Assembly (NCBI RefSeq): GCF_964355755.1
Contig: NC_092670.1
Coordinates: 14,494,795 to 14,558,794 of the forward strand
Origin: Antedon mediterranea
Taxonomy: Eukaryota; Animalia; Echinodermata
DNA: 64,000 nucleotides
Direction of reading: 5' to 3'
The first letter of the stretch is position 1. Each line of letters starts with the position of its first letter. A program made the position numbers and the translations under genes. The notes below the pieces were generated by a model. It did not search any database. It had not been told where the DNA came from and worked only from the letters and a program-made list of their open reading frames with translations. Shown here piece by piece: positions 9,812 to 44,682 of this stretch.

Positions 9812-10575
9812 AAATTGATTATTCTTGCAAATGAGAAAATTACTGTGAACCTGGATAGATAGAACAAATAAAATAAAAAACAATTATACTGAATTATGTA
9901 TATACCTAATGAAGTATTGGTAATCGTATAAAAAAAAACGTATTTTCTTCTTCTGTAAAATGTAACTTTTTAGTTTTAACATTACTTGAATACCGATAGA
10001 TATTGAAAGATTATTATGTGCAGAGATTGCAACATTGCATATTCAAATTCAGAACAATATCTATAATAATATAACTCACATAAAAACAAGATTAAAATGT
10101 GTTTACTCACCAGATATTGTTTCTCCTATACAGGAGAATGACATGGGTTGAAGTTACAGATTATTCGCTGCCTCTCTTGCATAGATAATAAATTGATTAT
10201 TCTTCCACATGAGTAAATTACTGTATTAGTAATTTCATGTGGACCTGGATAGATAGAAAAAATAATATAAAAAACAATTATACAACTGAAATTATGTATA
10301 GACCTAATGAAGTATTGGTAATCGTATAAAACAAAACGTATTTTATTCTTCTGTGAAATGTAACTTTTTATTTTCAACATTACTTGAATACTGGTAGATA
10401 TTGAACGATTATTATGTACAGAGATTGCAACATTGCATATTCAAATTCAGAACAATATCTATAATAATATAACACATAAAAACAAGATTAAAATGTGTTT
10501 AGACACCAGATATTGTTTTTCCTATACAGGAGAATGACAATGGTTGAAGTTAAAGATTACTCGCTGCCTCTTGTG
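9812..10575. repeat. Two copies of a ~380-400 bp tandem repeat downstream of the A1 ORF
   Basis: ACCAGATATTG at 10109 and 10505; AATTGATTATTCTT at ~9812 and ~10191. Confidence 0.85.
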
Positions 10576-10707
10576 TATAGAGGGTCATAATGATTTTCAG
10601 CTTGTTTTTATCGAATTGTTTTTTTTAATTTGTATCCAGTTCTATTTTCAATTCCTAAAAAGTTTTTACAGAAATATAATTCAAATACTTAAAAACCATT
10701 GATGCAA

Positions 10708-16700: not shown

Positions 16701-19700
16701 TCTTTTCTTCTCTGTATGCAGGATCAATTTGATATTTGTTTCTATTTTCATTTTTTTCTATTGAATTATCTTTTTCTTCTCTTCTTCTTTTCATTCTCTG
16801 ACGATTCTTTTCTTTTTGCTTTCTATTTTCATAAGATATTTTTCTTTTCCTTCTCAATGTTTTTACTTCATTTCCAGAACAAGGTCCCTCAACAGTTTTA
16901 CTCCTTTTGTGTTTTGGTTCTTTGTCTTCAAATGTGTGACATTCTTTTCTCATTTGCTTTCGTTTCTTTGTTGTATAATTCTTTTGGGATGTCACATCCA
17001 TATCAAGTTGTCCTGTTGTTTCTTGAAAATTATTTTGACTGACATTTACAGATTCCACTACATTAAAATGCACATTCATGGTGTACAAAATATATATACC
17101 ATTGTCAGTTGTAACATCATCTATTCTTCCCGGCTTTTTAGCAGAAAACAATTGCCACGTCAAAAGTTGATCATTAAATGAATAAATATCTGTATTAAGC
17201 AAGTTTGCCATTGCACCTATTTCAGTATTGGATGCCCACGTTCCATTATCCATTACTCTTTTTTTAAACACATATTCCTTAACTGATCTATATTCGTGAC
17301 TAAATGTATTAATAAATAAGTCATCAGTTTCCAATAAATGATTAGTAATTGCTCTTCTTAAAAGTAAATGATTATCTTCAGTCCCAGAAATAACGTATGA
17401 AATTGCACGATAAAAACAATTACCATCACCTGTAATATTTGTAATTTGAAGAGGATGTCCAATCTGACTAGCTCTGTTAATACCACAATTCATATCGGTA
17501 TGTTCACAATGAATGCCTAATTTATTACACATGTTTTTCTTTTGTTCTTCTAAGATCGGGACAAATTTAAAATTCTCGTCAGGTTTTTTTCCATACTGAA
17601 CATTAACAATTTCAATATCATTATCATTTTGCCATCCATTAGTTGATGAGTCATTATGTTTTTGGCCTTTAACGTTAGAATCAATATTCTTGTCTGGTAA
17701 TCTTGTACTACATTTATACTGATAAGACGTACTAGGTTCATCAACATTTTCGTTTCCCAAGTTTCTTTGTTCACAATTATCATCAAGCACAGAAGCGGAA
17801 CATAACATCATAGACTTATTTTCAATATTTACACCAGTCAGTTCAAACTCGGTGTCATGTAAATTACAGTTCATTGACCTTGCTAATCTTATACAATAGT
17901 CGTACACACCTTGCCAAGATGGACTGTAAAGTAAAATACTCTTTCCATGCTCACTAACACAACCAAATCGATCTCTTGCATGTGGATCAAATATAAGGAA
18001 ACCATTTACACGTTTAATAATAGAAAATGTGCTTCTGTTAAAATTCATAAAAAATGCATCATGTTGGTTTAATTCTTGTTCAAGAGCTTGCTTTAATGAC
18101 AAGGCTCCATATTCAGCCATAAATTCGAGATTCCCATCTATTATGCCAAAAACTGATTCTTTTGGAGATATTACAAATGTGTTATCCAAGATATCCAATT
18201 CTTTCGGCAGTTCAGAAATCATCAAAAGGTCCTCGTGCATAGTGGAATCTTTTTGAATGTAACGGTACAACTCATTTCCAAGAGTCAATATTGTATCAAG
18301 GTCTTTGGTGTAAAATTCATTTCCATTCATCTTTGTAGAATAAAGAATAGCTACAAGACTATTTGCAACACACTGTTTACCACCTGCAAAGCCAAATCTA
18401 TAATTCCCTTGATTAAAACTACCCTGTGCTACAGTTATATTATTATCATTACTATTATATAGTTGTAATTCATTTATTGATTGTGTATTCTGCCTTATTG
18501 GTGCATTCTTTTGTTTTGATCTCTCATCGATTATCAATTCTTCCGAAAAATTATTTTTTGTTAAAACTTCAATATCCACATCGATAGCATGTTGGTCACA
18601 TTTAGGTTTAGTATGGGACCTAATTTTTTCAGTCACTGCTTTTTTAGATCCGTCATCAATTATCGATACTTCGTTTTCGTCAAATTCACAACTTGCACAT
18701 GTTTGATTTTTATGATCTGTAACATTACTATCAAATCTATTAGTTCTGTCATTCATTTTGCTACTATTTTGTGATTTCACATCCTCAGTCGCTGTGTTGT
18801 CGTTTTCTTCAGTACATTTCATTTTAAAGTCGTCATCAGTTTTCATTTCTGAATTGTCATTTTTACCTTTCTTTAAAATAATATCTTCGCCAATCCGTTC
18901 CATAGTATCGCAATCATTCTTGTGGTGTTTTAAATTCAGGTTCATATTATCTTGTGATTCTTTGTTATCAATCTTCTTACTTTTGACAAAACGACCCTTG
19001 CTATTTCGTTTCGAACCACCACCTGATTGTTGTTGTATTCCGTTTGTTACCTTTGTATTTTTCAAAACATCACACATAGGCTTACCATTCGTTTCGTCAT
19101 TTTCCTTGTATTCTCTATAAGTACTTGTATTCATGTTCCATTCCATTTTGTTATTATTTCGTCTTTCATAGAAATCTTTTACACCTTTGCCGATATATTT
19201 TACACCTGGTTCTATACTTATACCATTTATAACGCGCTTTCTCCTTTTCTTATTTCCTCTATTTTTACATCTTTTTTTTCTGTTGTCGGTTCTTTTCTTT
19301 GATCTGACCCTTATCCAATCATTACCAAGTAAATCTTCACTTCCTGTTTGTTGACATTTTTTTAATTTGGCATTATTACGTTTTTCCTTATTTTTCGTTA
19401 AGTCTGCAGTGACAGATTCATCAGGTTCTAGAATCGTATATCTATTGAAATGACAGGGAATACCTATTTCACCCAATATGTTATCAACAAAATTACTATA
19501 CCCACACATTGAACAAATCCAAATTACTCTGGAATCACATAGTTTGTCTTCAAAAACATCTCTTACACATTTCACATGAAAATATTGACTACAACAGTCA
19601 CATGTTATGCAATTGTCGTCTGCTTTCACTTCAATACTACACAAATCGCATGTATCATCAAACTCTGAAGCGACCTCTGTACCATAAGATAATATGTTTA

Positions 19701-20028
19701 TGATATCATCAATTATTTCTTTAAATTCCGTTGTATCTTTGATAACTTCACAATCGACATTACATGTATCATCATTTTCCAGTTTTATAGTGCTCATGTC
19801 TTTGACATTCTTAGATAAGCAACATTGGTCAAGTAGGTCCAAGATTTCATCAATGACTGTTTCAAATTCTGTTGTATCTATAATACCACTATCAACATTA
19901 CCAGCTGTATTGACATTATTGTACTCTTTATTTGTATTTTCTTTATTATTCTTAAAAAAGCACCATAACATTAAGAAGAACATTAAAAACAACATACCAA
20001 TAATAAAGGTTATTAATAGTGTATCCAT
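10708..20028 (-). CDS. Helentron RepHel-EN transposase, 3106 aa (TM, PHD, peptidase C76-like DUB, OTU, 18-aa repeats, HUH Rep, PIF1 helicase, AP endonuclease)
   Basis: Rep EFQMRGSPHVH and YVIGYMSK; helicase GGAGTGKS, IDEISMV, GDFYQLPPV, TVHKVQG, GQAYVGLSR; APE HNIQGL, LTETWL, YRPP, GDFN, IDHVY, SYH; OTU GDGNCFYRA..W..HF; C76-like GSFNQG..QC..FDPH. Confidence 0.95.
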   Translation of the reverse strand: MDTLLITFIIGMLFLMFFLMLWCFFKNNKENTNKEYNNVNTAGNVDSGIIDTTEFETVIDEILDLLDQCCLSKNVKDMSTIKLENDDTCNVDCEVIKDTTEFKEIIDDIINILSYGTEVASEFDDTCDLCSIEVKADDNCITCDCCSQYFHVKCVRDVFEDKLCDSRVIWICSMCGYSNFVDNILGEIGIPCHFNRYTILEPDESVTADLTKNKEKRNNAKLKKCQQTGSEDLLGNDWIRVRSKKRTDNRKKRCKNRGNKKRRKRVINGISIEPGVKYIGKGVKDFYERRNNNKMEWNMNTSTYREYKENDETNGKPMCDVLKNTKVTNGIQQQSGGGSKRNSKGRFVKSKKIDNKESQDNMNLNLKHHKNDCDTMERIGEDIILKKGKNDNSEMKTDDDFKMKCTEENDNTATEDVKSQNSSKMNDRTNRFDSNVTDHKNQTCASCEFDENEVSIIDDGSKKAVTEKIRSHTKPKCDQHAIDVDIEVLTKNNFSEELIIDERSKQKNAPIRQNTQSINELQLYNSNDNNITVAQGSFNQGNYRFGFAGGKQCVANSLVAILYSTKMNGNEFYTKDLDTILTLGNELYRYIQKDSTMHEDLLMISELPKELDILDNTFVISPKESVFGIIDGNLEFMAEYGALSLKQALEQELNQHDAFFMNFNRSTFSIIKRVNGFLIFDPHARDRFGCVSEHGKSILLYSPSWQGVYDYCIRLARSMNCNLHDTEFELTGVNIENKSMMLCSASVLDDNCEQRNLGNENVDEPSTSYQYKCSTRLPDKNIDSNVKGQKHNDSSTNGWQNDNDIEIVNVQYGKKPDENFKFVPILEEQKKNMCNKLGIHCEHTDMNCGINRASQIGHPLQITNITGDGNCFYRAISYVISGTEDNHLLLRRAITNHLLETDDLFINTFSHEYRSVKEYVFKKRVMDNGTWASNTEIGAMANLLNTDIYSFNDQLLTWQLFSAKKPGRIDDVTTDNGIYILYTMNVHFNVVESVNVSQNNFQETTGQLDMDVTSQKNYTTKKRKQMRKECHTFEDKEPKHKRSKTVEGPCSGNEVKTLRRKRKISYENRKQKEKNRQRMKRRREEKDNSIEKNENRNKYQIDPAYREEKKRKVKEAQQIRYADDDYKFQKRKENRKRQHKMYRCEPEYNVKVRNKAKHNYNIDLDYRTTKKETVKNRYNNDTMFRHKTIQNNKQRNQERYHNDTQFRKNLKQNLAQKYCTNSQFRENITQKLTEKYQSNFKFRQNCKEKFVKKYRTNLKFRQKWKDKLAEKYRSNLKFRQNCKEKLAEKYQSNLKFRQNFKDKLVEKYRSNLKFRRKCKDKLAEKYRSNLKFRQKCKDKLAEKYRSNLEFRQNCKQKLAEKYRENSKFRQRCKKRFTEKYHGDEVFRKKIMKKNMKNRKKIKTENTNFNIVLENFKKTVSRGPENVCCVCFKLLFKDQVMKCIKPKYKNQACINEKYLHICNNECNKPCQFVESPRCHLWICFTCHRKMLKGKVPAEANSNNLQLYDIPPELGCLNNLEQHLIGLNIPFMKLMNLPKGGQHGIHGPVVCVPSNTIETVKMLPRPQVDDQLISVKLKRKLSYKGYYKYKFVNTANVIQALRYLQDHNKCYFDIAINEEWHNYLSEENIENANNNVHENHTCVENNEEEEEEVEDRLCGAIFDTSFQPVDRRQNLVDEYFNDIICCAPCENNSPIALLSNKSNEAKSFPVLFPTGQPTFHDTRDVKITLGRYFHNRLMHIDNRFAQNTEFIFYAQSLYELQQILSSISIALRKGSSKKDDFSKVTVSDLKNVTKIQEILKSDRGYKFLKQIRGTPPYWQATQKDIIAMVRQIGKPTFFLSFSSADFRWKEIMTTLLSQSGDQRNIEELEWADKCNLLKSNPVTVARMFDKRFHTFLKNVILSEAQPIGKVVDYFYRIEFQMRGSPHVHMLVWVENAPIFGTDKDNEVINFVDKYISCAVPCETVDPELNEIVKSVQIHSKRHSKSCKKKGTNCRFNFPRQPSGNTFVMRPTIVDKDNDDNDDNKQAMELLTSVKDAVTNEETYKNAIELFQSLGITQTAFEKANNCVATEEKIVIKRNPQDVWVNQYNPSLLRAWNANMDIQYITNVYACIIYVIGYMSKSEREMGLLLNHAASEVKEGNEDARQSFRKLGNVYMNNREVSAQESIYRVCSLRLKECSRKVEFIPVGPNPVRMSLPLSVIKNKEDDDVSAWLPNKIDKYKARPNSSEFNKMCLAKFCSEYRILSSSEMKGNKKKKNVFQLKKQLGFIQKRTRTSNAIVRYPRFPMDTAPEKYFLSILQLFLPIRKDEQLKPPNFETYEQFHEKGCVKLCGCQLQTVKSIVHGNMEQYEKSADDVEEAQECLSKFGPQEDAWSLLCPESEKERLDNPKPNVEVDDEEDEFFIPDFGIQKNHTFKVESNSSNIPRPELNKMIRSLNEKQQHIFYKTRQWCLDKVNGKKPEAFYTFITGGAGTGKSHLVNCIYNEATRILGKIMENPDDLSILKLAPTGIAAYNIKGQTIHSALSIPINISLPYQPLGEEKISALRNKLGQLQIVIIDEISMVNQRLLWYIHGRLRQIKQVRNDSPFGNISVIAVGDFYQLPPVMGSSLYKDTLESSLWIDNFKQVQLDQIMRQKEDKQFALLLNKLRTKEKHDCLSDNDLLVLKSRETGEECEDAVHIYPRNKQVDEWNKKMLHKTCTDIVCIKAEDSVVNSKKQSKNCDKPRNSRQTSLLNYLWIAINARVMLIKNVDVKKGLTNGCMGHVDEIVKPDHNNGPVSIKVKFDNNDIGIQAIEMFKESMGKKYSRKQFPLKLAYACTVHKVQGMTMDKAVVCLKDTFTHGQAYVGLSRVTSITGLTIENFKPSLIYCDPNIKKCLNNMDSYVQCDKQGHDSASRFSIMLHNIQGLKQHFVDLQCNDLFMNSNIICLTETWLNKDDDVFDVRIEPYKLYHQARYDSYSNTNDLSSKIKHQAHGGVAVYAKNTSSSRLNIGNNDIEAVSFLITSPISVAVSVIYRPPSYDINQFCQNLRKHLEELHKMSTKCIVMGDFNENLFKQSSRVNNLMAENEYKQHVTCSTTENNTLIDHVYSKGLDSVQTEVIPIYYSYHEAIQIKF
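15885..16440 (-). repeat. 54-bp (18-aa) coding tandem repeat LAEKYRSNLKFRQNCKQK, ~9 units
   Basis: Visible in translation and DNA. Confidence 0.9.
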
Positions 20029-20231
20029 TATGTATGGTTAATCAAATCCAGAAATTGTTTTCAAATTCTATACAATTGATGTATTCTACTTCGTAATTAC
20101 TTTATACAAATATGTTTTTTTTCCTGCTAAACTTATATTTATCTTTCCAAATTGTGTTTCGAGACAACTAATGTTTATATTCACTACGCCTAACTTTTTT
20201 GGTTCTGCAAAAGCCTTGATAAAGTTTCTAT

Positions 20232-20277
20232 AGATAATAGAAAGATAGATAGATTTAGATAGATAGATAGATAATAG
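20232..20277 (+). repeat. Imperfect (GATA)n microsatellite, also at ~44504-44549
   Basis: agatagatagatttagatagatagatagata. Confidence 0.8.
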
Positions 20278-20410
20278 ACTGCTGTCTATAAAAAGATTTG
20301 AGATTTCGTTTTATTCATCCAGTGGAGATTTTGCTTAAAATAATTCATCCAGTGGAGATTTTGCTTTAAATTTGCTTTCGTTGTTGCTGATTTGGAATAC
20401 TTATAATCGG

Positions 20411-20490
20411 TTAATCCTCGTTGGTACTCTCTTTCGGAGAGCAGGATCTCTTTCGGAGATCCGGGTCTCTTCTGAGACCCAGCGGATTAA
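20411..20490 (-). other. Three adjacent hairpins closed by an outer stem (putative structured 5'UTR element)
   Basis: Minus strand TTAATCC..GGGTCTC/GAGACCC, GGATCTC/GAGATCC, TGCTCTC/GAGAGTA..GGATTAA. Confidence 0.6.
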
Positions 20491-21060
20491 TTCTTCAAAA
20501 CTCTGCAATAAAAGAGAAAGAAAAATTATTAATAATGTTATATATATTTTTTCTCTACCCCATGACTTATAAGAGAAAATTCTTGCATAGTATTAGTAGG
20601 CATGCTCAAGCAGCATAATTGTAATACTCATGATATAATCATTCACTTCACAATCTTTGTGCGATTTAATCGCTTAATTAAACTCATTAGTCGTTAACGA
20701 TGATAGATCAAAGAAACATACTATGTTGTGAGTCATAACTTGAAAATAATGTAGTCCAAACTATATGATTCTAGTTGGTATCTTTTACATAACCCAATTT
20801 TTTTTATAGGTTAAAATAAACTACAAAAACTAATGTATTTTTTTTAATAAGGCCCTGTCATAGGTATCATGTAAAATGAATAATGATTAATCGGCAGCAC
20901 ACGTGACTCATAATACACAAAATACTGTATAACACATTTCATGGTACCTGTAGTAGATTTTACCGATTTTAAATGATGTAAACTTTATTTTGCATTTTTA
21001 ACAATTTGTAATGTATTTGTTTTATCACATCTTGATATTAACTGTATCAAGGGGTGTAAT

Positions 21061-21592
21061 TGCTTCTTAATCAATGTCTGAAAAATTAATAAATTTCCTC
21101 AAAATGACTTTGGGTATGAGACGGCTGATTAGGGCCTACATGTAGTCTCAATGCTAATTTCATTTAATATTCACAAACAATAAAATCTGAATTATGTAAA
21201 TGTTTCATAATAGAAAATGCCTACAAAATAACAGGCAACAGTTCACAAAGTAAGGAAAATATGTTTTCTCCGTTTAACAGATAATCTACTAATACTCACA
21301 GCTGTAGCTGACACTGTAGGCCTATATTTCCTACAATCTAAAAAATACAAGTAAAAACATTAATAATGGCAATAAACAACATAAAAACTTTTTCCAAATC
21401 AACATGCTTCTTAATCAATGTCTGAAAAATTAAGAAATTTCCTCAAAATGACTTTGGGTATGGGCCGGCTGATTACATGTGGTCTCAATGCTAATTTCAT
21501 TTAATATTTTAATCACAAACAATAAAATCTGAATTATGTAAATGTTTCATAATAGAAAATAATGCCTAAAAAATAAAAGGCAACAGTTCACT
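21061..21592. repeat. ~190-bp direct repeat pair (21061-21247 and ~21405-21592), also in A2 at ~45333-45863
   Basis: TGCTTCTTAATCAATGTCTGAAAAATTAA...GGCAACAGTTCAC occurs twice. Confidence 0.85.
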
Positions 21593-21777
21593 CCCAATCA
21601 TGAGGCCATTAATCATCTCTACAAATTATTTATTTTAATTTATGTACACTACTTACGATATTCTAGAGATTATGAAGTAAAAACAATGTTATTACACTAT
21701 TGTTTATCTCTTCCAACAGCTACAAGACAAAAATATATTCTATAAAATATATTATAAAAATCAAAAATCAACATTTG

Positions 21778-22466
21778 GGCGCTAGTTCTGTTTCGCACCT
21801 GTCATTTATTTCGATTCAAAATTTGTTTAGTAACTTTATCGTGAGTACCACACCTTAGAATTAGGCCTCAAATACTTTTATGAAGGAGATCACACAAAAA
21901 GTAAAAAATAAATCCTTTAAATTGATGAATTTACAGACGTGTTTCTCGCACATCGGTTCGTGAATTTCGCATAGGCCTACGCCATGTTCAATGTTGTTGT
22001 GTCTATGGAGCGCCAATTGACATTGGCAAAATATATTAAAATTGAACGTAATTTTCACTAATAAATGCATTAAATATACGCATTATAATAATTGAGTTTT
22101 CAGCTCTCTATTATGATTGCTCTTTTGGCGCTCCATAGAAACAACAACATTGAACACAAAATTCACTAATCGATGTGCGATAAGCACGTCTGTAAATTCA
22201 TCAATTAAAAAAATGTATTTGTTACTTTTTGTGTGATCTTCTTCGTAAAAGTATTTTTGCGGCCTAATTCTAAGTTGTGGTACTCACGATAAAGTTACTA
22301 GGCCTAAACAAATTTTGAGTCGAAATATATGACAGGTGCGAAACGGAACTAGCGCCAACAGTATTTTTGCGGCCTAATTCTAAGTTGTGGTACTCACGAT
22401 AAAGTTACTAGGCCTAAACAAATTTTGAGTCGAAATATATGACAGGTGCGAAACGGAACTAGCGCC
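21778..22466. mobile_element. Foldback/MITE with ~240-bp TIRs and 8-bp TSD nested in A1
   Basis: GGCGCTAGTT...AACTAGCGCC flanked by AACATTTG at 21770-21777 and 22467-22474; the last ~110 bp of the right TIR are tandemly duplicated. Confidence 0.85.
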
Positions 22467-24248
22467 AACATTTGTAACAATGAGATAAGACAGGTGCGAA
22501 AGGGAACTACGCTGACCTACACTACTACTAGGACTACTAGACTGACCTACAACATGCTATAATTGTAAGCTCATTCAACGAGTCGTTGTTTCTTCTCTTT
22601 AATTAAGAACTTATAAACTAAAAACTAAAGTTAATATATATATCCAAGGTGCAAAAGGAAACTAGCACCGTTTAGTCCTACTAAAAACAGGCTAGGCCTA
22701 GGTACACTGTGTAGTTCATATTTAACATACACATCAGGCCATACACGATTGTCGTGCTGCTCCGGAAGCCATCGGGCAGAAAAACTTCACGACGTTTGTC
22801 ATCTCTCAAACTACAGCCTTCCCGTATGGTGTATAGCACACTAAACACATGCCTCTATATCAATCATATTAGGCCTAGCTAGCCTAGAGGGTAAGTAGAA
22901 ATTACAAAACAACTACAAATTAAACAATCCACATAATTTCTTACCTATTTCTAAACAAACTTGAGTTTGTTATCAAGTTTGTTATTTCTTAATATTCTTT
23001 ATATATAAAATAGTATTTGTAATACAGTATTATCAAAGTTATTAATAAAGTTTTCTTGTATCTTGTATCAGAACGACTCTGTACAAACCAACCAACATGG
23101 AGTTATCAACACATGAAGTATGGCATGCAATCCTCGCCAAAATTACCAATATGTAACGAATAACGGAAATTAGTTGTGCATCGCGTATCTCTAAAACGTG
23201 TAAACATAACATTTCATAACTTTGACAGCATATGGGCATTTACGTGAAGTTGTGCACCTCCTATTTTTAAATGACTTCAGAGTTGCGTAACATGACTTAC
23301 GCGCGTTTTTACGAAATTCGCGAATTTAACATAGATCGAAAACCATATAACAATTTAAAGTTTAATTTATATCTTGCGCTAACTGACTATGGAAAAATGG
23401 CATGTTTCACGCGAAGTTACGCGCGCACGTGCGTTTAAAATCTAAAAACGCGAAAAATCAATTTCTAATCAATTTTCTACGCGTTTCATGTCATTTTAAA
23501 CATATAAAAATTCCCACGCGCGCGCATTTTTACGCGCGCGTGCGCATGTAGCGTTATTGTTGTTTTTCCAGCCTTTTCTAGTAATTTTACCAATTTTAAA
23601 ACAATTTCGACTTAATATCACGTCATACGAGCACGTAGAATTTGACAATTTGCGCGCGTTTTTGATAAAAAAGTTAAAAAATTCGTCAAAATTATGCTTC
23701 TTTTTAAACAGTCATAAATTCTAAACTACACGGTCAACTTTTTGTGGATGACATATTCTGGAAGATGATGAGTTGTAAATATCGGATCATGCATCGATAT
23801 GGCTAACCGGACATTTTAACGTCATCGTATGGCCACTCGAATATAAAATATAGGATTTTTGTCTCTTTCGTCATAGCTCGTCACATTTAATAGAGCGCAT
23901 CTCCACTTATCCGTATTCCATTGCCTTCCATTTTTTTTGTATTGTCTAGGTCAATCAATTATCTTTCGCATGATTTACCATTTTTTGAAATTGTTATGAC
24001 GTCATCATGTGCAAAAGCGTCAGTAACTTTGGTCACTTATTTTCACCTATTCTGCACTGTATGTTGTACCTATACAGTATATAGCGTATACCGTATATAC
24101 TTATACGTGACGCAAAATAGAGAGCGCGCTAAATTTTTTTTCAATGGCATAATCGTTTTTCTGCGCGCAATATTCTGACGTGTGGCGTGCGAGTGGCTTT
24201 TGCGATGCGGATAACCTAACTCGTCCGTAGTGACGAGTTCAAATCTAG

Positions 24249-25460
24249 TTGGTTATCCGCACTTTGGCGGATAACCTCTTGTTATTGTCAGGATCTTTTT
24301 TTTTTTTTTCTTTTTTTTCTTTTTTCTTCTTTCTTTCCCAGAATTTTGTTGCGCGTGTATCTCAAAATCTTCTTAACATAACATTGTATAACTTTATCAG
24401 AAGATTGACCTCTGTCTGAAGATGTCGTAATAAGGTTTTCGGTCCAGTCCGAGTTGCGCAGCGTAACTTACGCGCGATTTTATGAATTTCAATGATTGAT
24501 CATAGATTAAAAACCAAAAGTAATTTTGTTTTGAAACTTTGTGAAAATTTAAGTCATATTAATCGGAAACTTTCTATGGATTAAAAATGGCAGGTTGCGC
24601 AGAAAGTTACGCGCGCACGCGCATTTAAAATTTCAAAATGCGAAAAATCAATTTCTAATCAACTTTCTACGCGTTTCATGTCATTTTGAGCTTTTCAAAA
24701 ATTCCCACGCGTGCGCAATTTTTTTACGCGCGCGTGCACACGTAGCGCAAAAACATCCTTTTTTTTCTTGATTTTTGTTTTTTCAGCCTTTTCTAGTAAA
24801 TTTATCAATTTTAAATCAATTTCGACTTAAAATCACGTCATACGAGCACGTAGAATTAAACAATTTACGCGCATTTTTTATGAAAAAGTTCAAAAATTAG
24901 TCAAAATTATGCCTTTTTTTAAACAGTCATACATTCTAAACTACGTGGTGAACTTTTTTATAATTACATATTCTGGTAATAGATGAGTTGCAGATATCAA
25001 ATCATGCATCAATATGGCTAACCGGACATTGTGACGTCATCATATGGCCACTCGTATATAAAATATAGGATTTTTGTCTCTTTCCTCGTAGCTCGTCACA
25101 TTTAATATAGCGCATCTCCACTTATTTGTTTTCCATTTCCGCCCATTTTTTTATGTTGTCTAGGTCTATCAATTATCTTTCGCACGATTCACAATTTTAA
25201 AAATTGTGATGCCGTCATCATGTTCAAAAGCGTCAATAACTTTGGTCACTTATTTTCACCTATTCTGCACTGTATGTAGTACGTATACAGTATATAGTGT
25301 ATACCGTATATACTCAGACGTGACGAAAAATAAAGAGCACGCTGAAATTGTTTCAATTACTTAATCGTTTTTCTGCGCGCAATATTTTAACGTACGACGT
25401 GCACGTGGCCTTTGCGCTGCGGATAACCTAACTCGTCCGTAGTGACGAGTTCAAATCTAG
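24249..25460 (+). mobile_element. Complete non-autonomous Helentron unit
   Basis: Left hairpin terminus at 24249, right terminus CTAG at 25460. Confidence 0.85.
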
Positions 25461-28400
25461 TTGGTTATCCGCACTTGGCGGATAACCCCTTGTTATTGTC
25501 AGGATCTTTTTTTTTTTTTTTTTTATTTTTCTTTTTTTTGGTTATCCGCACTTGGCGGATAACCCCTTGTTATTGTCAGGATCTTTTTTTTTTTTTTATT
25601 TTTCTTTTTGGTTATCCGCACTTGGCGGATAACCCCTTGTTATTGTCAGGATCTTTTTTTTTTTATTTTTTTTCTTTTTTTTCTTTTTTCTTCTTTCTTT
25701 CCACGAATTTTGTTGCAAGCATATCTCTAATTCTGGCTAACAAATGATTGTATAACTTTGTCATAAGATTGAACTATATCTGTAGATGTGCAAGAAACTT
25801 TGTTTTTTGATTTTCGAGTCGCGCAGCGTAAGTTACGCTCGATTTTATGAATTTCAATGATTGATCATAGATTAAAAACCAAAAGTCATTTTGTATTGAA
25901 ACTTGGTGAAAATTTAAGTCATATCATGCGCAAACTTTCTATGGATTAAAAATGGCATGGTTTTAAAAAGTTACGCGCGCACGCGCGTTTAAAATTTCAA
26001 AATGCGATAAATCAATTTCTAATCAACTTTCTATGCGTTTCATGTCATTTTGAGCATTTCAAAAATTCCCACGCGTGCGCAATTTTTTTACGCGCGCGTG
26101 CGCACGTAGCGCAAAAACATCTTTTTTTTGCTTGATTTTTATTTTTTCAGCCTTTTCTAGTAAATTTATAAATTTTCAATCAATTTCGACTTATAATCAC
26201 GTCACACGAGCACGTAGAATTGGATAATTTGCGCGTGTTTTTGATGAAAAACTTCAAAAAATCGTCAAAATTAGACCTTTTTTTAAACTGTCATAACTTC
26301 TAAACTACGTGGTGAACTTTTTTAAAATTACATATTCTGGAAGTAGATGAGTTGTTTTTCTCGAATCATGCATTGATATGGCTAACCGGACATTGTGACG
26401 TCATCGTATGGCCACCCGAATATAAAATATAAGATTTTTTTCTCTTTCGTCATAGCTCGTCAAATTTAATAGAGCGCATCTCCACTTATCCGTATTCCAT
26501 TTCACTCAATTTTTTTATATTGTCTAGATCAATCAATTATCTTTCGCATGATTCACCATTTTTAAAATTGTGATGACGTCATCATGTTCAAATGCGTCAA
26601 TAACTTTGGTCACTTATTTTCACCTATTCTGCACTGTATGCAGTACGTATACAGTATATAGTGTATACCGTACACACTTAGACGCGACACAAAATAGAGG
26701 GCTCACTAACATTTTTTCAATGGCATAATCGTTTTTCTGCGCGCAATATTCTAACTTAGGTGTCATGCGCGTGGGTTTTGCGAGGCGGATAACCTAACTC
26801 GTCCGTAGTGACGAGTTCAAATCTAGTTCTCTTTTTTTTTCTATTTTCTTCTTTCTTTCCACAAATTTTGTTGCTAGTGTATCTCTAAATCTTCTTAACA
26901 TAACATTGTATAACTTTATCAGAAGATTGACCTCTATCTGAAGATGTCGTAATAAGGTTTTCAGTCGCGTCCGAGTTGCGCAGCGTAAGTTACGAGCGAT
27001 TTTATGAATTTCAATGATTGATCATAGAATAAAACCTAAAAGTTTTTTTGTATTGAAACTTGGTGAAAATTTAAGTCATATAATGCGCAAACTTTCTATG
27101 GATTAAAAATTGCATGCTTCACAAAAAGTTACGCGCGCACGCGCGTTTGAAATTTCAAAATGCGAAAAATCAATTTCTAATCAACTTTCTACGCGTTTCA
27201 TGTCATTTTGAGCATTTCAAAAATTCCAACGCGTGCGCAATTTTTTTACGCGCGCGTGCGCACGTAGCGCAAAAACATCATTTTTTTGCTTGATTTTTGT
27301 TTTTCCTGTCTTTTTTAGTAAATTTACCAACTTTCAAACAATTTCAACTTAAAATCACGTCATACGAGCACGTAGAATTAAACAATTTACGCGCATTTTT
27401 GATGAAAAAGTTCAAAAATTTGTCAAAATTATGCCTTTTTTTAAACAGTCATAGATTCTAAACTACGTGGTGAACTTTTTTAAAATTACATATTCTGAAT
27501 GTAGATGAGTTGTAGATATCGAATCATGCATCGATTTGGCTAACCGGACATTGTGACGTCATCGTATGGCCACACAAATATCAAATATAGGATTTTTGTC
27601 TCTTTCGTCATAGCTCATCACATTTAATAGAGCGCATCTCCACTTATCCGTATTCCATTTTCCCCCATTTTTATATATTGTCTAGGTCAATCAATTATCT
27701 TTCGATTGATTCACCATTTTTAAAATTGTTATGACGTCATCATGTCCAAAAGCGTCAATAACTTTGGTCACTTATTTTCACCTATTCTACACTGTATGTA
27801 GTACGTATACAGTATATAGTGTATACCGTATATACTTAGACGTGACACAAAATAGAGGGCGCACTAACATTTTTTTCAGTGGCATAATCGTTTTTCTGCA
27901 CGCAACATTCTAACGTATGACGTGCACGTGGCTTTTGCGCTGCGGATAACCTAACTCGTCCGTAGTGACGAGTTCAAATCTAGTTTTTTCTTTTTTTTCT
28001 TTTTTCTTCTTTCTTTCCCAGAATTTTGTTGCGCGTGTATCTCAAAATCTTCTTAACATAACATTGTATAACTTTATCAGAAGATTGACCTCTATCTGAA
28101 GATGTCGTAATAAGGTTTTCGGTCCAGTCTGAGTTGCGCAGCGTAAGTTACGCGCGATTTTATGAATTTCAATGATTGATCGTAGATTAAAAACCAAAAG
28201 TAATTTTGTATTGAAACTTGGTGAAAATTTAAGTCATATTATGCGCAAACTTTCTATGGATTAAAAATGGCATGTTGCGCAGAAAGTTACGCGCGCACGC
28301 GCGTTTAAAATTTCAAAATGCGAAAAATCAACTTCTAATCAACTTTCTACGCGTTTCATGTCATTTTGAGCATTTCAAAAATTACCACACGTGCGCAATT

Positions 28401-31400
28401 TTTTTACGCGCGCGTGCGCACGTAGCGCAAAAACATCATTTTTTGGCTTGATTTTTGTTTTTCCTGTCTTTTTTTAGTAGATTTACCAACTTTCAAAAAA
28501 TTTCGACTTAAAATCACGTCATACGAGCACGTAGAATTGAAAAATTTGCGCGCGTTTTTGATGAAAAAGTTCAAAAATTCGTGAAAATTATGCCTTTTTT
28601 TAAAATGTCATAGATTCTAAACTACGTGGTGAACTTTTTTAAAATTACAGATTCTGGAAGTAGATGAGTTGTAGATATCGAATCATGCATCAATATAGCT
28701 AACGGGACATTGTGACGTCATCGTATGGCCACTCAAATATAAAATATAGGATTTTTTTCACTTTCGTCTTAGCTCATCACATTTAATAGAGCGCATCTCC
28801 ACTTATCCGTATTCCATTGCCCTCCATTTCTTTATATTGTCTAGGTCAGTCAATTATCTTTCGCATGATTCACCATTTTAGAAATTGTGATGACGTCATC
28901 ATGTCCAAAAGCGTCAATAACTAGGGTCTCTTATTTTCACCTATTCTGCACTGTATGTAGTACGTATACAGAATATAGTGGATACCGTATACACTTTGAC
29001 GTGACGCAAAATAGAGAGCGCACTAACATTTTCTCGATGGCATAATCGTTTTTCTGCGCGCAATATTCTAACGTATGATGTGCACGTGGCGTTTGCGAGG
29101 CGGATAACCTAACTCGTCCGTAGTGACGAGTTCAAATCTAGTTTTTCTTTCTTATTCTTCTTTCTTTCCCAGAATTTTGTTGCGCGTGTATCTCTAAATC
29201 TTCACAACATAACATTATATAACTTTATCAAAAGATTTACCTCTATCTGAAGATGTCGTAATAAGGTTTTCGGTACCGTCCGAGTTGCGCAGCGTAAGTT
29301 ACGAGCGATTTTATGAATTTCGAGAATTTCATTTAGATCGAAAACTATTAAACCATTTAAATTGAAACTTGGCAAAAGTTTAATTTATATCATGCGCTAA
29401 ATTTCTATGGAGAGAAAATTGCATGTTTTACAGAAAGTTACGCGCGCACGCGCGTTTAAAATTTCAAAATGTGAAAAATCAATTTCTAATCAACTTTCTA
29501 CACGTTTCATGTCATTTTGAGCATTTCAAAAATTCCAACGCGTGCGCACTTTTCTTACGCGCGCGTGCGCACGTAGCGCAAAAACATCTTTTTTTTGCTT
29601 GATTTTTGTTTTTCCAGCCTTTTCTAGTAAATTTACCAATTTTCAATCAATTTCGACTTAAAATCACGTCATACGAGCACGTAGAATTGAACAATTTGCG
29701 CGCGTTTTTGATGAAAAAGTTTAAAAATTCGTGAAAATTATGCCTTTTTTAAAAAAGTCATAGATTCTAAACTACGTAGTGAACTTTTTTTAAATTACAC
29801 ATTCTGAAAGTAGATGAGTTGTAGATATTGAATCATGCATCAATATAGCTAACCGGACATTGTGACGTCATCGTATGGCCACTCAAATATAAAATATAGG
29901 ATTTTTGTCTCTTTCGTCATAGCTCATCACATTTAATAGAGCGCATCTCCACTTATCCGTATTCCATTTCTCCCCATTTTTACATATTGTCTAGGCCAAT
30001 CAAATATCTTTCGCATGATATATCGTTTTTAAAATTGTGATGACGTCATCATGTCCAAAAGCGTCAATAACTTTGGTCACTTCTTTTCACCTTTTCTGCA
30101 CTGTATGTAGTACGTATACAGTATATAGTGTATACCGTATATACTTAGACGTGACACAAAATAGAGGGCACACTAACATTTTTTTCAATGGCATAATCGT
30201 TTTTCTGCGCGCAATATTCTAACGTATTACGTGCACGTGGCTTTTGCGCTGCGGATAACCTAACTCGTCCGTAGTGACGAGTTCAAATCTAGTTTTTTTT
30301 TTATTTTTTTTCTTTTTTTTCTTTTTTCTTCTTTCTTTCCCAGAATTTTGTTGCGCGTGTATCTCTAAATCTTCTTAACATAACATTGTATAACTTTATC
30401 AGAAGATTGACCTCTATCTGAAGATGTCGTAATAAGGTTTTCGGTCCCGTCCGAGTTGCGCAGCGTAAGTTACGCGTGATTTTATGAATTTCAATTATTG
30501 ATCATAGATTAAAAACCAAAAGTCATTTTGTATTGAAACTTGGTGAAAATTTAAGTCATATTAAGCGCAAACTTTCTATGGATTAAAAATGGCAGGTTGT
30601 GCAGTAAGTTACGCGCGCACGCGCGTTTAAAATTTCAAAATGCAAAAAATCAACTTCTAATCAACTTTCTACGCGTTTCATGTCATTTTGAGCATTTCAA
30701 AAATTCCTACACGTGCGCAATTTTTTTACGCGCGCGTGCGCACGTAACGCAAAAACATCATTTTTTGGCTTGAATTTTGTTTTTCCTGTTTTTTTTTAGT
30801 AGATTTACCAACTTTCAAACAATTTCGACTAAAAATCACGTCATACGAGCACGTAGAATTGAAAAATTTGCGCGCGTTTTTGATGAAAAAGTTAAAAAAT
30901 TCGTGAAAATTATGCCTTTTTTAAAAAAGTCATAGATTGTAAACTACGTGGTGAACTTTTTTAAAATTACATATTCTGGAAGTTGATTAGTTGTAGATTT
31001 CGAATCATGCATCGATATGGCGAACCGGACATTGTGACGTCATCGTTTGGCCACTCAAATATGAAATATAGGATTTTTGTCTCTTTCGTCATAGCTCGTC
31101 ACATTTAATAGAGCGCATCTCCCCTTATCCGTATTCCATTGCCCTCTATTTTTTATATTGTCTAGGTCAATCAATTATCTTTCGCATGATTCACCATTTT
31201 TAAAATTTTTATGACGTCATCTTGTTCAAAAGCGTCAATAACTTTGGTCCCTTATTTTCACCTATTCTGAACTGTACGTAGTACATATACAGTATATAGT
31301 ACATACTGTATATACTCAGACGTGACACAAAATAGAGAGCGCACTAACATTTTTTCAATGTCATTAATCGTTTTTTTTTTGCGCGCAATATTCTAACGTA

Positions 31401-31466
31401 TGACGTGCACGTGGCTTTTGCGCTGCGGATAACCTAACTCGTCCGTAGTGACGAGTTCAAATCTAG
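25461..31466 (+). mobile_element. Three stacked left termini followed by five ~1.15 kb non-autonomous unit bodies
   Basis: Left cores at 25463, 25540, 25610; right-end CTAG at 26826, 27983, 29141, 30292, 31466. Confidence 0.88.
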
Positions 31467-34036
31467 TTTTTTTTTTTCTTTCTTATTCTTCTTTCTTTCC
31501 CAGAATTTTGTTGCGCGTGTATCTCTAAATTTTCTAAACATAACATTTTATAACTTTATCAGAAGATTGACTTCTATCTGAATATGTCGTAATAAGGTTT
31601 TCGGTCCCGTCCGAGTTGCGCAGCGTAAATTACGCGTGATTTTGTGAATTTCGCGTATTTACCATAGATCGAAAACCAAAAAACAATTTAAATTGAAACT
31701 TGGCAGAACTGTAATTAATATCATGCGCTAACTTTCTGTGGATTAAAAATGGCGCTTTTTGAAGAAAGTTACGTGCGCACGCGCGTTTAAAATTTCAAAA
31801 TGCGAAAAATCAATTTCTAATCAACTTTCTACGCGTTTCAGGTCATTTTGAGCATTTCAAAAATTCCCACGCGTGCGCATTTTTTTTACGCGCGCATGCG
31901 CACGTAGCGCAAAAACATATTTTTTTTGCTTGATTTTTGTTTTTTCAGCCTTTTTTAGTAAATTTACAAATTTTCAATCAATTTCGACTTAAAATCACGT
32001 CATACGAGCACGTAGAATTGAATAATTTGCGCGAGTTTTTGATGAAAAAGTTAAAAAATTTGTGAAAATTATGCCCTTTTTTAAACAGTTATAGATTGTA
32101 AACTACGTGGTGAACTTTTTTAAAATTACATATTCTTGAAGCAGATGAGTTGTAGATATCGAATCATGCATCGTTATTGCTAACCGGATATTATGACGTC
32201 ATCGTATGGCCACTCGAATATAAAATATAGGATTTTTTTCTCTTTCGTCATAGCTCATCACATCTAATAGAGCGCATCTTCACCTATCCGTATTCCATTT
32301 CCCCCTATTTTTTATATTGTCTAGGTCAATCAATGACCTTTCGCATGATTTACAATTTTTAAAATGTTTATGACGGCATCATGTGCAAAAGCGTCAATAA
32401 CTTTGGTCACTTATTTTCACCTATTCTGCACTGTATGTAGTACGTATACAGTATAGTATACTGTATCTTCTTAGACGTGACACAAAATAGAGAGCACACT
32501 ACAATGTTTTCAATTGCATAATCGTTTTTCTGTGTGCAATATTCTAACGTATGATGTGCACGTGGCGTTTGCGCTGCGGTAAACCTGAATCAAAGTTGTT
32601 TATTTTTTTCTTTTTTTTCTATTCTTCTTTCTTTCCACGAATTTTGTTCGCAGCGTATCTCTACTTCTGGTCAACATAAGATTGTATAACTTTGTCCTTT
32701 AGATGTGCAATGATGTTAGAGTCGCGCAGCGTAAGTTACGCGTGATTCTATGGAATTTTATGGTTGCTCATAAATTTTTAAGACAAACTTTACGAAAGTT
32801 TATTTCATAATATTGTGCAACTTTTGAAATGATAAAAATGGCGTGCTACGCAAAAAATTAGGCGAGTACGAGTGAAATTTTAAAATGCGCAAAATTAATT
32901 TCTATTTAATTTGCGTACATTTCAGGTCATTTTGTGCGCACAGCTCGTACAAAGCGTAGAAAACGTGTTTTGCAATTGATTTTGTTCTTATGCCTACGTT
33001 TTATAGTAGATTTCATTCATTTTCACGAATTTTTATTGCAAATTAACGATGCACGTGCATGTTAAAGTTTAGAAATCGTGTGCTAAAGAATGGGTAATAT
33101 AATACAAATTTGTTCAAACATATTCCTATTTCTATTCAGTTATAGCTCCTCAGGATGGCAGGTTACCCCATTTATTTTTTATCTATTATGGAAGCTAATG
33201 AGTTGTAGATATCAATTAATGTACAATTTGTACCTAAGGGATGTTCTGACGTCACCATATGGCCACTCAAATTTTGAAAATAGATTTTTTTCTCTTTTGT
33301 ATTAATTAATCCCATCTAATGCGTTTAAATGTTCTTGACAAATCAATTTTCTTTCACACATTAGTTAACAAAGTGACCCATGTGATTAAAACTTATAGAA
33401 ATGGTTGAATTGTGGATATGAAGTCATATACAAATTATGTCCATCTGATTTCATGACGTCATCATATGGCCAGTTGAATTTAAATAGTCAGATTTTCATA
33501 TATTTCGTAAAACTTAATCGTGTTTAAAATAGAGCGCATCTCAGGTTAACTTGCTCCAATAGTTATAACATTTCTGATAAAACTAATATTATCACAGCAT
33601 GACTGTAAAAATAATCTTTTATTTCAAGCAAATTGAAGAAAACATACAAATCTGTATAAAATGTTCCGTATACCGGTATTTATATAAGCTTTCATTGGTT
33701 ATTGCAAATGGTACAAAATTGTCAACATATAGTAGGCTGTTTATACTATACAGTAGTTCATCAACATTTTGGTGATCAGTAACTTTACTTAGTACATTAT
33801 TACATGGTAATTTGTTAGTTTAGGATTCATTAAACGCATATTTATTGATCTATTTATAGAAGATTCTTATTTTTTATCAATCATTAATATGATTAATAAT
33901 TTAATCTTTAGCCGCGTTTAGACAATTGTTATGAAAGAGCGAATGACTGCATTAGTGACTGCTAAGAATCCGGATCCCATTATAATTGAAGAAATGAAAC
34001 CATTCCACTGAACACCTGAAAACGAAAACAAAATAA

Positions 34037-34800
34037 ATTGATTATTCTTGCAAATGAGTAAAGTACTGTATTAGTAATTTCATGTGGACCTGCATAGATA
34101 GAAAAAAAAACTGAAAGTATGTTTGGACCTAATGAAGTATTGGAAATCGTATAAAACAAAATGTATTTCTTCTTCTGTAAATTGTAACTTTTTATTTTTA
34201 ACATTACTTGAATACCGGTAGATATTGAAAGATTATTATGTGCACAGATTGCAACATTGCATATTCAAATTCAGAACAATATTTATAATAATATAACTCA
34301 CATAAAAACAAGATTAAAATGTGTTTACTCACCAGATATTGTTTCTCCTATACAGGAGAATGACATGGGTTGAAGTTACAGATTATTCGCTGCCCCTCTT
34401 GCATCGATACTAAATTGATTATTTTTCCAAATGAGAAAATTACTGTATTAGTAATTTCATGTGGACCTGGATAGAAAAAAAAAGAATATAAAAAAACAAT
34501 TATACAACTGAAATTATGTATAGACCTAATGAAGTATTGGTAATCGTATAAAACAAAACGTATTTTCTTCTTCTGTGAAATGTAATTTTTATTTTCAACA
34601 TTGCTTGAATACTGGTAGATATTGAACGATTATTATGTACAGAGATTGCAACATTGCATATTCAAATTCAGAACAATATCTATAATAATATAACTCACAT
34701 AAAAACAAGATTGAAATGTGTTTAGACACCAGATATCGTTTTTCCTATACAGGAGAATGACATGGGTTGAAGTTACAGATTACTCGCTGCCTCTTGTGCA
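34037..34800. repeat. Two copies of the ~380-400 bp repeat downstream of the A2 ORF
   Basis: ACCAGATAT at ~34331 and ~34728. Confidence 0.8.
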
Positions 34801-34931
34801 TAGAGGGTCATAATGATTTTAAGCTTGTTTTTATCAAACTGTTTTTTTCAAATTTGTATCCAGTTCTATTTTCAATTCCTAAAAAGTTTTTACAGAAATA
34901 TAATTGAAATACTTAAAAGCCATTGATGCAA

Positions 34932-37900
34932 TTAAAATTTAATTTGAATGGCTTCATGATAGCTATAATAAATTGGAATTACTTCAGCCTGTACTGAATC
35001 AAGACCTTTGCTATAAACATGATCAATCAATGTATTGTTTTCAGTTGTAGAACATGTAACATGTTGTTTGTACTCATTCTCTGCCATTAAATTATTCACT
35101 CTGGAAGATTGTTTGAAAAGATTTTCATTAAAATCACCCATTACAATACATTTTGTGCTCATTTTATGTAACTCTTCCAAATGTTTTCTCAAATTTTGAC
35201 AGAATTGATTAATATCATAACTTGGGGGTCGATAAATTACTGACACTGCAACAGAAATCGGACTTGTTATTAAAAATGAAACTGCTTCTATATCATTATT
35301 ACATATGTTTAATCTGCTTGAAGACGTATTCTTCGCATACACTGCAACGCCACCATGAGCCTGATGTTTTATTTTGGAACTGAGATCATTTGTATTAGAA
35401 TAAGAATCATACCTTGCTTGGTGATACAATTTATACGGCTCAATGCGTACGTCAAAAAAATCATCATCCTTGTTTAACCATGTTTCAGTTAGACATATGA
35501 TATTAGAATTCATAAACAAATCATTACACTGAAGATCAACAAAATGTTGTTTAAGCCCTTGAATGTTATGTAACATTATTGAAAATCTAGAAGCCGAATC
35601 ATGACCTTGTTTATCACATTGTACGTATGAATCCATATTATTTAAGCACTTCTTTATGTTTGGATCACAATAAATCAGACTAGGTTTAAAATTTTCAATA
35701 GTAAGTCCAGTTATTGAAGTAACACGACTGAGGCCTACATATGCTTGACCATGCGTAAAAGTATCTTTAAGGCAAACCACTGCTTTATCCATTGTCATTC
35801 CTTGCACTTTATGAACTGTGCATGCATATGCTAATTTGAGAGGAAATTGTTTTCGACTGTATTTTTTTCCCATAGATTCTTTAAACATTTCAATTGCCTG
35901 AATACCAATGTCATTATTGTCAAATTTTACTTTAATAGATACTGGTTCGGTGTTATGATCAGGTTTGACTATTTCATCAACATGTCCCATACATCCATTC
36001 GTTAAGCCTTTTTTAACATCTACATTTTTAATCAACATCACTCTGGCATTAATTGCAATCCACAAATAATTTAGTAAACTAGTTTGACGTGAATTCCGAG
36101 GTTTGTCACAATTTTTGCTCTGTTTCTTGCTATTTACTACACTATCTTCTGCTTTAATGCATACAATGTCTGTACAGGTTTTGTGCAACATTTTTTTATT
36201 CCATTCATCAACTTGTTTGTTGCGTGGGTAAATATGAACAGCATCTTCACATTCTTCGCCTGTTTCACGTGATTTTAGAACTAATAAATCGTTATCAGAC
36301 AAACAATCATGTTTTTCTTTTGTACGCAATTTGTTTAACAATAAAGCAAATTGTTTATCTTCTTTTTGCCTCATGATTTGATCTAACTGTACTGGCTTAA
36401 AGTTATCTATCCACAGTGAGCTTTCCAATGTGTCTTTATATAACGAACTGCCCATCACCGGGGGTAACTGATAAAAATCACCAATAGCAATTACTGAAAT
36501 GTTACCAAATGGACTATCGTTGCGTACTTGTTTTATTTGCCTTAATCGTCCGTGGATATACCAAAGTAACCTTTGATTTACCATTGATATTTCATCTATA
36601 ATAACAATTTGCAACTGGCCCAATTTATTACGAAGTGCACTTATTTTTTCTTCTCCAAGTGGTTGATACGGAAGTGAAATATTAATCGGGATAGACAAAG
36701 CGCTATGAATTGTTTGGCCTTTAATATTATATGCTGCGATTCCTGTAGGAGCTAATTTCAATATTGACAAATCATCGGGATTTTCCATAATCTTTCCAAG
36801 AATACGTGTCGCTTCATTATAAATACAATTTACCAAATGACTTTTTCCTGTACCAGCGCCTCCAGTTATGAAAGTGTAAAATGCTTCAGGTTTTTTACCA
36901 TTAACTTTGTCTAAACACCATTGTCTTGTCTTATAAAATATATGTTGTTGTTTTTCATTTAAAGATCGAATCATTTTGTTCAATTCTGGTCTTGGAATAT
37001 TAGATGAATTAGACTCTACTTTAGATGTAGGATTTTTTTGAATTCCAAAATCTGGAATGAAAAATTCATCTTCTTCATCATCAACCTCTACATTTGGCTT
37101 TGGGTTGTCTAACCTTTCTTTTTCGCTTTCTGGACATAATAGGCTCCATGCATCTTCTTGTGGTCCACATTTTGATAAACATTCCTGTGCTTCTTCAACA
37201 TCATCAGCACTTTTTTCATATTGTTCCCTGTTTCCATGAACTATTGACTTTACCGTTTGTAATTGACAGCCACATAATTTCACACATCCTTTCTCATGAA
37301 ATTGTTCATACGTTTCAAAATTTGGAGGTTTTAACTGTTCATCTTTTCGAAATGGTAGAAATAACTGAAGTATACTCAAAAAATATTTCTCAGGTGCTGT
37401 ATCCATTGGAAATCGAGGGTATCTTACTATAGCATTACTAGTTCGTGTTCTTTTTTGGATGAATCCCAACTGTTTTTTTAACTGAAATACATTCTTTTTT
37501 TGTTTGTTTCCTTTCATTTCTGATGAACTCAATATTCTATATTCCGAACAAAATTTTGCAAGGCACATTTTATTAAATTCAGAACTATTAGGTCGAGCTT
37601 TATATTTGTCGATCTTATTTGGCAACCATGCACTTACATCATCATCTGCTTTGTTTTTAATTACACTTAGTGGTAAACTCATTCTGACAGGATTAGGTCC
37701 TACTGGGATAAATTCAACTTTCCTTGAACATTCTTTTAATCTTAAACTACAAACACGATAAATACTTTCTTGTGCAGACACTTCTCGATTATTCATATAA
37801 ACATTACCAAGTTTTCGCAAACTTTGCCTAGCATCTTCATTGCCTTCTTTCACTTCTGATGCTGCATGAGATAACAGTAAGCCCATTTCTCGTTCCGATT

Positions 37901-44300: not shown

Positions 44301-44682
44301 TATGTATGGTTAATCAAATCCAGAAATTGTTTTCAAATTCTATACAATTGATGTATTCTACTTCGTAATTACTTTATACAAATATGTTTTTTTTCCTGCT
44401 AAACTTATATTTATCTTTCCAAATTGTGTTTCGAGACAACTAATGTTTATATTCACTACGCCTAACTTTTTTGGTTCTGCAAAAGCCTTGATAAAGTTTC
44501 TATAGATAATAGAAAGATAGATAGATTTAGATAGATAGATAGATAATAGACTGCTGTCTATAAAAAGATTTGAGATTTCGTTTTATTCATCCAGTGGAGA
44601 TTTTGCTTAAAATAATTCATCCAGTGGAGATTTTGCTTTAAATTTGCTTTCGTTGTTGCTGTTTTGTAATACTTATAATCGG

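Follow-up and report, generated by a model that had tools for sequence, protein, structure and literature searches.

How did one copy of a short transposable element come to lie inside another, and does the arrangement record a single event? The question is raised by a stretch of 64,000 nucleotides from the echinoderm Antedon mediterranea (NC_092670.1, positions 14,494,795 to 14,558,794, forward strand; the window), in which an earlier note had proposed one nested insertion at a T|T site that added two Ts. Positions below count from the first letter of the window, and features are collected in Table 1.

Reconstruction of the interrupted copy

In the assembled sequence, as had been claimed, the left end at 25540 runs into GATC-T14-A-T5-C-T5 and then into a new left core at 25610. 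Past the CTAG that closes the inner copy at 26826 follows T2-C-T-C-T9-C-T-A-T4-C, matching the described TT-CTC-T9. Excision of 25608-26826 (TTGG...CTAG) regenerates an uninterrupted tract with no base gained or lost: 25538-25607 joined to 26827 onward is identical to the copy from 49560 onward for 172 nt, 102 nt of which lie beyond the join. When pairs of cuts at both junctions were scanned, 3 of 500 gave at least 170 nt of identity, and these three are one cut in equivalent registers slid by 1-2 T (25608-26826, 25609-26827 and 25610-26828). A pairing control combined 10 split left ends with 8 headless bodies and 5 intact copies; three of the 400 combinations, the focal pair among them, stayed identical for at least 30 nt past the join, the next best reaching 15 nt. 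The two halves of the host meet at the sole complementary base of a 47-nt patterned tract. Because removal restores the sister copy exactly, the segment at 25608-26826, a complete non-autonomous Helentron, very probably inserted by rolling-circle transposition into its sister's T tract, with no target bases duplicated or deleted. The reconstruction is best read as a precise insertion at a T|T site, and both bracket parses of the locus given below keep left end 25538 paired with right end 27983.

Table 1. Features of the window, with positions, strand and remarks
Feature	Positions	Strand	Remarks
Eight stacked left ends, every one closed by a T run	5360..5810	+	outer edge 5359/5360
Variant left end	5419..5478	+	extra T in loop, one substitution; joins exactly to body 48407
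Intact innermost copy of first stack	5759..6968	+	
Autonomous copy 1 without head	6969..24248	+	left arm (its right end decayed, ~8110), ORF, right arm 23173-24248
ORF, 3106 aa	10708..20028	-	Herpes_teg_N, OTU, DUF6570, Rep, PIF1 helicase, endonuclease
Intact copy with variant left end	24249..25460	+	joined CTAG-TT-GG on both sides
Extra left end	25461..25537	+	T18-A-T5-C tract, no fitting body
Left part of host copy	25538..25607	+	TT, left hairpin with subterminal inverted repeat, GATC, T14-A-T5-C-T3
Inner non-autonomous Helentron, 1219 bp	25608..26826	+	TTGG...CTAG; edges slide by 1-2 T
Left-end hairpin of inner copy	25610..25634	+	10-bp stem, z = -6.3; first arm is left subterminal repeat
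Right end of inner copy	26785..26826	+	subterminal repeat 26785-26794, 8-bp stem-loop 26796-26817, CTAG
Rest of host copy	26827..27983	+	remaining tract (T2-CTC-T9-CTA...), body, right end
Three headless bodies in tandem	27984..31466	+	27984-29141, 29142-30292, 30293-31466
Autonomous copy 2 without head	31467..48406	+	layout as copy 1
ORF, 3122 aa	34932..44300	-	90.8% identical to 3106-aa ORF
Headless body	48407..49559	+	with 5419-5478 gives 165 nt identical to copy at 24249; CTAG plus one T before
Intact copy, empty-site model	49560..50784	+	equals host for 172 nt exactly, ~300 nt nearly
Headless body, true sister of host body	50785..51929	+	
Two more left ends and autonomous copy 3	51941..64000	+	runs off window
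ORF, at least 2604 aa	56150..63964	-	frame open to window end

The use of the copy at 49560 as the uninterrupted equivalent of the host held for the first ~300 nt and failed beyond, where that copy belongs to a different lineage. Aligned with 49560-50784 as had been suggested, the reconstruction shows 4 differences in the first 300 columns and 80 after them, for 93.2% identity overall. The body at 50785-51929, by comparison, is 99.2% identical to the host body (26839-27983). Since the match extends over ~300 nt only and the bodies are mosaic, the copy at 49560 can stand for the empty site without being a twin of the host; no full-length uninterrupted twin was seen. The bodies differ from each other by 1-15%, and 25 of 78 pairs carry a shared tract at p ≤ 0.0033 (permutation test, uncorrected p). 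One body (48407-49559) is a three-part mosaic whose last ~200 nt are 97% identical to neighbouring autonomous right arms, which suggests exchange with the adjacent autonomous copy. Shared tracts anchored at the left (10 of the 21 strongest) were considered as a sign of exchange started by the transposase and set aside, since any single crossover would give them.

Two further joins behave like the focal one. The variant head at 5419-5478 joined to the body from 48407 reproduces the intact variant copy at 24249 across 43 kb. The third exact reconstruction, 5708 with 27984, is decided by the T count alone and clashes with the simplest parse of the locus.

The earlier note had left two origins for the added Ts, the element itself or a TT duplication, and the first is now favoured. 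All 15 left cores in the window are preceded by at least two Ts and 11 of 12 right ends are followed by at least two, as a duplicated TT target would have it, and the focal junction by itself fits either assignment. The right end at 48406, however, has a single T behind it, yet its host (5419-5478 with 48407 onward) reconstructs exactly and without loss. This disfavours both a TT duplication and a TT at the 3' end, in an argument that draws on one of the 12 right ends. The accessible text of Thomas et al. 2014 (PMC4067079) likewise records no target modification for HINEs, and we consider a duplicated TT target quite improbable. Judged from these junctions, the two Ts probably belong to the element, and the data agree equally with both at the left end and with one on either side. 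If they are divided between the ends, the focal site becomes TTTT|T and that at 48406 TTTT|C, the target that a figure legend of PMC5148889 lists for Helitron2. One junction argues that the terminal Ts are the element's own, a point that PMC4067079, in the part available, leaves open.

Short and autonomous members of one family

The short copies, ~1.2 kb long, begin with TT, a hairpin with a 10-bp stem, GATC and a T-rich tract, and continue with the body, an inverted repeat of the hairpin arm, an 8-bp stem-loop and CTAG. Their subterminal inverted repeats of 10-11 bp, slightly below the 12-15 bp quoted for HINEs in the excerpted PMC4067079, lie at +2 on the left and 42 nt before the right terminus; the 8-bp stem lies 9 nt before the end, and every copy has a long T run ~45 nt behind its left end. 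Inner and host copies are 89.4% identical. The right ends that close ORF-bearing copies, at 24248 and 48406, equal those of the short copies (96.5% identity over the last 66 columns), and the sole ORF that overlaps short copies is a T-rich chance ORF of 101 aa. Subterminal inverted repeats, a 3' stem-loop, ends in common with an autonomous partner and no coding capacity, together with insertion into TT or T-rich sites without target duplication, seen in two diagnostic reconstructions that use paralogous models rather than true empty alleles, place the inner and host copies by sequence as non-autonomous Helentrons (HINE, Helitron2 group). A canonical Helitron1, which starts with 5'-TC, inserts at A|T, lacks terminal inverted repeats and has L in RG(L)PH, was rejected: the elements start with TTGG, carry inverted repeats and have S in the motif, and the hairpin-CTAG end is the only feature alike.

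The three ORFs of the window are ~90% identical to one another, those of 9 kb being intact, and their domain set includes Herpes_teg_N and OTU. All three contain Helitron_like_N and PIF1 domains together with HVH and YVIGYMSK motifs, that is, a Rep HUH and two tyrosines. Each also has an Exo_endo_phos match (E 7e-9 to 3e-11), a C-terminal AP endonuclease of predicted activity, whose last motif is YSYH, a form shared by 31 of the 85 relatives that have a GDFN motif. The motif-2 signatures FYR and RGSPH are present in all three as FYRIEFQMRGSPHVH, F/Y-x-R and the S of RG(S)PH being the Helentron criterion in the portion of PMC4067079 consulted, and DUF6570, a marker of HLE2 according to the excerpted PMC11417382, is found in each at E about 1e-19. 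By predicted domains, motifs and ends, the ORF-bearing copies are Helentrons (HLE2/Helitron2 group). A protein search with residues 1450-2250 of the second ORF (801 residues) gave 476 matches among 5718 candidates, the best from the feather star Antedon mediterranea itself at up to 96-97% identity, followed by sea urchins, molluscs and fishes. By itself this ranking makes a feather star or a near relative the most likely host. Two RepHel proteins of A. mediterranea (P0005 and P0007), annotated merely as uncharacterised and compared at the protein level, share the Pfam set and are 96-97% identical over 83% and 51% of the query. Three long intact ORFs and near-identical copies suggest that the family was recently active. 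It is a candidate for the first Helentron transposition assay; we know of none so far. Biochemistry of Helentrons was called for in 2014 (PMC4067079, as available in part).

The ORFs and their surroundings carry further repeats. Each transposase ORF includes an in-frame 54-bp minisatellite of 7-9 copies, varying between elements (15888-16415, 40142-40622 and 61347-61749). Upstream of the ORFs, inverted similarity links 21778-22356 with 46070-46644 and is also present at 21061-21591 (78% over a 600-nt piece, 89% for a 190-nt pair). Copy 1 alone has a perfect duplication of 110 bp, at 22250-22470. Downstream, a unit of 370-380 bp occurs twice in elements 1 (9805-10581) and 2 (34032-34804) and more than twice in element 3 (55092-56010). 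The start of the second ORF (44180-44300, minus strand) encodes a hydrophobic, membrane-anchor-like stretch of about 20 residues, odd for a transposase, and the true start may lie further in.

Every autonomous copy opens with a body like that of a short copy, its right end decayed, followed by a fainter second body. Near 8110 and near 32595 these inner right ends have lost hairpin and CTAG, and near 53205 both are mutated, so that the decay took two different forms. The two complete autonomous copies end in a 1.07-kb right arm that is 97.8% identical between them. We infer that the 1.1-kb arms are old self-insertions whose carriers kept their mobility since the inner stop signal was lost. Short copies are nearer to the left arms in columns 0-700 and from there slightly nearer to the right arms, the decayed end excepted, a pattern compatible with short copies as "solo arms" produced by recombination between the two arms of an autonomous copy.

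A pile of nested copies and its possible histories

The claim of one nested insertion proved too narrow: the focal event forms a single layer, about 7-8 levels down, in a pile that occupies the window from 5360 to its end. This pile holds 15 left ends and 12 intact right ends; a search of both strands returned 13 left cores of exact length and 12 right ends, all on the plus strand. Ten left ends are split inside their own T tract, each followed by another left end, and eight right ends are followed by a tract remainder and a headless body. Three of the 12 right ends are joined as CTAG-TT-GG, and the remaining one leads into T13 and a head. In a bracket reading, the number of open left ends never drops below zero and is 8-9 at the deepest point.

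The pile can be parsed in more than one way. A strict parse that uses every one of the 15 left ends couples 25461 to 27984 and 5419 to 50785; neither couple reconstructs, and the parse was given up in favour of one spare head. With head 25461 set aside by hand, the variant head 5419 closes at 49559, in keeping with its exact reconstruction, and the focal insertion lies at depth 8; the 43-kb pairing (5419/48407) arises in the bracket parse only when one left end is set aside in this way. Alternatively, 5759-27983 may be a single composite that landed in the tract of head 5708, with 309 nt restored exactly by T count alone and another head left over. The sequence as assembled would accommodate either history, and the focal pair holds in both. 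Head 25461, which has a similar split tract and no matching body, counts against our best explanation.

That explanation would run as follows. The inner copy may have been mobilised by a transposase of its own family, from the local copies or another. The family would prefer T runs, and the T run ~45 nt behind each left end would be a landing site for the following insertion. Round after round, heads would gather in stacks to the left while headless bodies would line up in tandem to the right, the order seen from 5360 on, and later recombination among bodies, probably with transposition of two-headed composites, would have blurred the pile. Among T runs of at least 10 in the pile, 17 of 19 lie inside family tracts, and A runs of 10 are absent. 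A plain liking for long T runs on one strand can therefore explain both the site and the common orientation, and homing into the own tract beyond that preference is doubtful. In a wider scheme that we offer tentatively, the tract behind the left end would act as a landing pad for local re-insertion and the locus would grow inward, like a Russian doll, to tens of kilobases. Rows of 1.15-kb bodies would then form without a rolling-circle concatemer, and autonomous copies would survive hits in their tract only if the terminator of the intruder decays, explaining their 1.1-kb direct-repeat arms.

The nested pair could also be older, made elsewhere or in the neighbouring block, and have arrived within a larger piece through read-through transposition of a composite or through unequal exchange between two blocks of ~23 kb. 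Blocks 5759-27983 and 27984-51929 contain look-alike units in the same order: 5832 pairs with 28006 (97.3%), 7000 with 30328, the ORF of copy 1 with that of copy 2 (94%), 24326 with 48424 and 26848 with 50794 (99.2%). Block duplication or exchange has therefore probably acted as well. The piece 5759-27983 has five left and five right ends, its removal restores 309 nt identical to the copy at 5759, and its arrival as a unit would account for the spare head at 25461. The middles of the blocks, however, differ by 6% and in unit content, another spare head is left among 5479-5648, and the insertion is still needed, merely moved in date and place. We rate this origin as possible, if on the unlikely side.

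In a history without any insertion, slippage would have multiplied the heads, unequal crossover or rolling-circle concatemers would have multiplied the bodies, and the tract halves would fit by chance; this is quite improbable. The heads of the stack do form a near-perfect tandem array of 50-77 nt, the bodies are mosaic, and the three CTAG-TT-GG joints look like those of a concatemer. Concatemers, however, predict head-body-head-body and not eight headless bodies, and the focal halves, like the second diagnostic pair, meet at the one complementary base of the tract.

Insertion into the T tract, which we prefer, was also viewed through public sequencing. Contigs of four runs, searched with 25380-27300 without 25498-25702, show a very abundant and diverse family; none of the matching pieces bridges the junctions. 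Four contigs of run X8 have GATC and a T run directly before sequence like that at 26827, that is, unsplit heads, and the CTAG-TT-GG joint recurs in run X3; such joints would fit transposition by way of a circular intermediate, but they also arise by insertion in front of a head. In run X6 the left core has a depth of 1.7 million against 247 for the flank; summed contig depth, itself no copy number, suggests thousands of family copies. On 4700-5405, loose contig ends show unrelated AT-rich flanks, T runs and one stacked head, and no empty allele was among the matches listed (contigs of four runs, one giving nothing). The left core pattern had no match in metagenome contigs. An apparent liking for TTA in front of dispersed left ends (17 and 14 contigs whose match starts at 5357) was discounted, as it may be alignment extension over T runs. 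A contig of run X6 passes from single-copy flank into the first head by 25 nt, supporting the outer junction of the pile. Homopolymers and near-identical heads are error-prone, and an assembly artefact of a repeat array might be suspected. The bodies are nonetheless 1-15% apart, the 9-kb ORFs are intact, the outer junction is found in that public contig, and errors would destroy exact complementarity, not make it; an artefact is very improbable indeed.

The flank outside the pile carries, at 1648-4686 on the minus strand, exons of an mRNA capping enzyme (DSPc match at 3846-4091, mRNA_cap_enzyme match at 1648-1836, in two of four pieces scanned). Its likely first coding exon near 5025-5100 would put the start of the pile about 260 nt upstream of a housekeeping gene. 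Two short inverted-end elements in introns of this gene (1001-1200 and 2820-2975), seen by eye, are probably MITEs.

Comparison with published Helentrons

Taken singly, the focal event is ordinary; the value of the locus is that it keeps heads and displaced bodies together, with insertion points readable to the base. Helentrons may, on this evidence, give rise to tandem arrays along a second route, by nesting and not by concatemers. Repeat annotation will miscall such piles as a satellite with solo ORFs. If self-homing holds, piles of this kind would preserve the order of dozens of insertions and pin down the register in which the Helentron transposase cuts. A search of openly accessible literature gave no report of a pile this deep, or of the present family in Antedon; deeper stacks may be shown in Figure S11 or Table S6 of PMC5148889.

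For the Helitron2 group, the partly available papers compared here already describe self-insertion close to the left end and T-rich targets that are not duplicated. HINE/DINE-1 elements, whose anatomy, T-rich targets, lack of target change and unassignable terminal Ts are set out in the sections of PMC4067079 at hand, resemble the short copies in their subterminal inverted repeats, whose distance to the left end is 2 nt and to the right end ~40 nt. Alike, too, are the left inverted repeat nested in a repeat, the right stem-loop and the unchanged T-rich target, as well as the partner ORF (Rep, helicase, endonuclease) in minus orientation, as in Helentron-Da-40. In the present family, in contrast, the long T tract directly behind the left hairpin is the family's own target. 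The choice of a T run by the endonuclease is a hypothesis in that text, which describes clusters and tandem arrays; the stack of split heads is a feature of the present locus.

Other arrays and nestings are on record, as far as the excerpts go: Helitron-derived arrays in PMC12001565 and PMC11934779 are of another make, and nested insertion is invoked for Paramecium elements in PMC13085455. The elements in the excerpted PMC11417382 (2024) share with ours the T|T insertion and an ORF with DUF6570, endonuclease, Herpes_teg_N and OTU. A further likeness is an autonomous copy whose two left termini form a direct repeat. The autonomous copies here differ in having 1.1-kb direct-repeat arms, the right end of the inner arm being decayed.

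A close parallel is FoHeli, a Helitron2 of Fusarium whose multiple 5' termini were explained by self-insertion (Chellapan et al. 2016, PMC5148889, as available in part). There, too, short 5' termini are repeated before one body, which was put down to self-insertion near the 5' end and to the transposition of two-headed chimeras; three copies in tandem and a non-autonomous copy inside an autonomous one are likewise reported. The FoHeli copies described have two or few termini, mostly without displaced bodies, whereas up to eight heads stand in a row here and the bodies are present. The Antedon locus adds exact reconstructions, three intact transposase ORFs in one pile, an animal host and an endonuclease.
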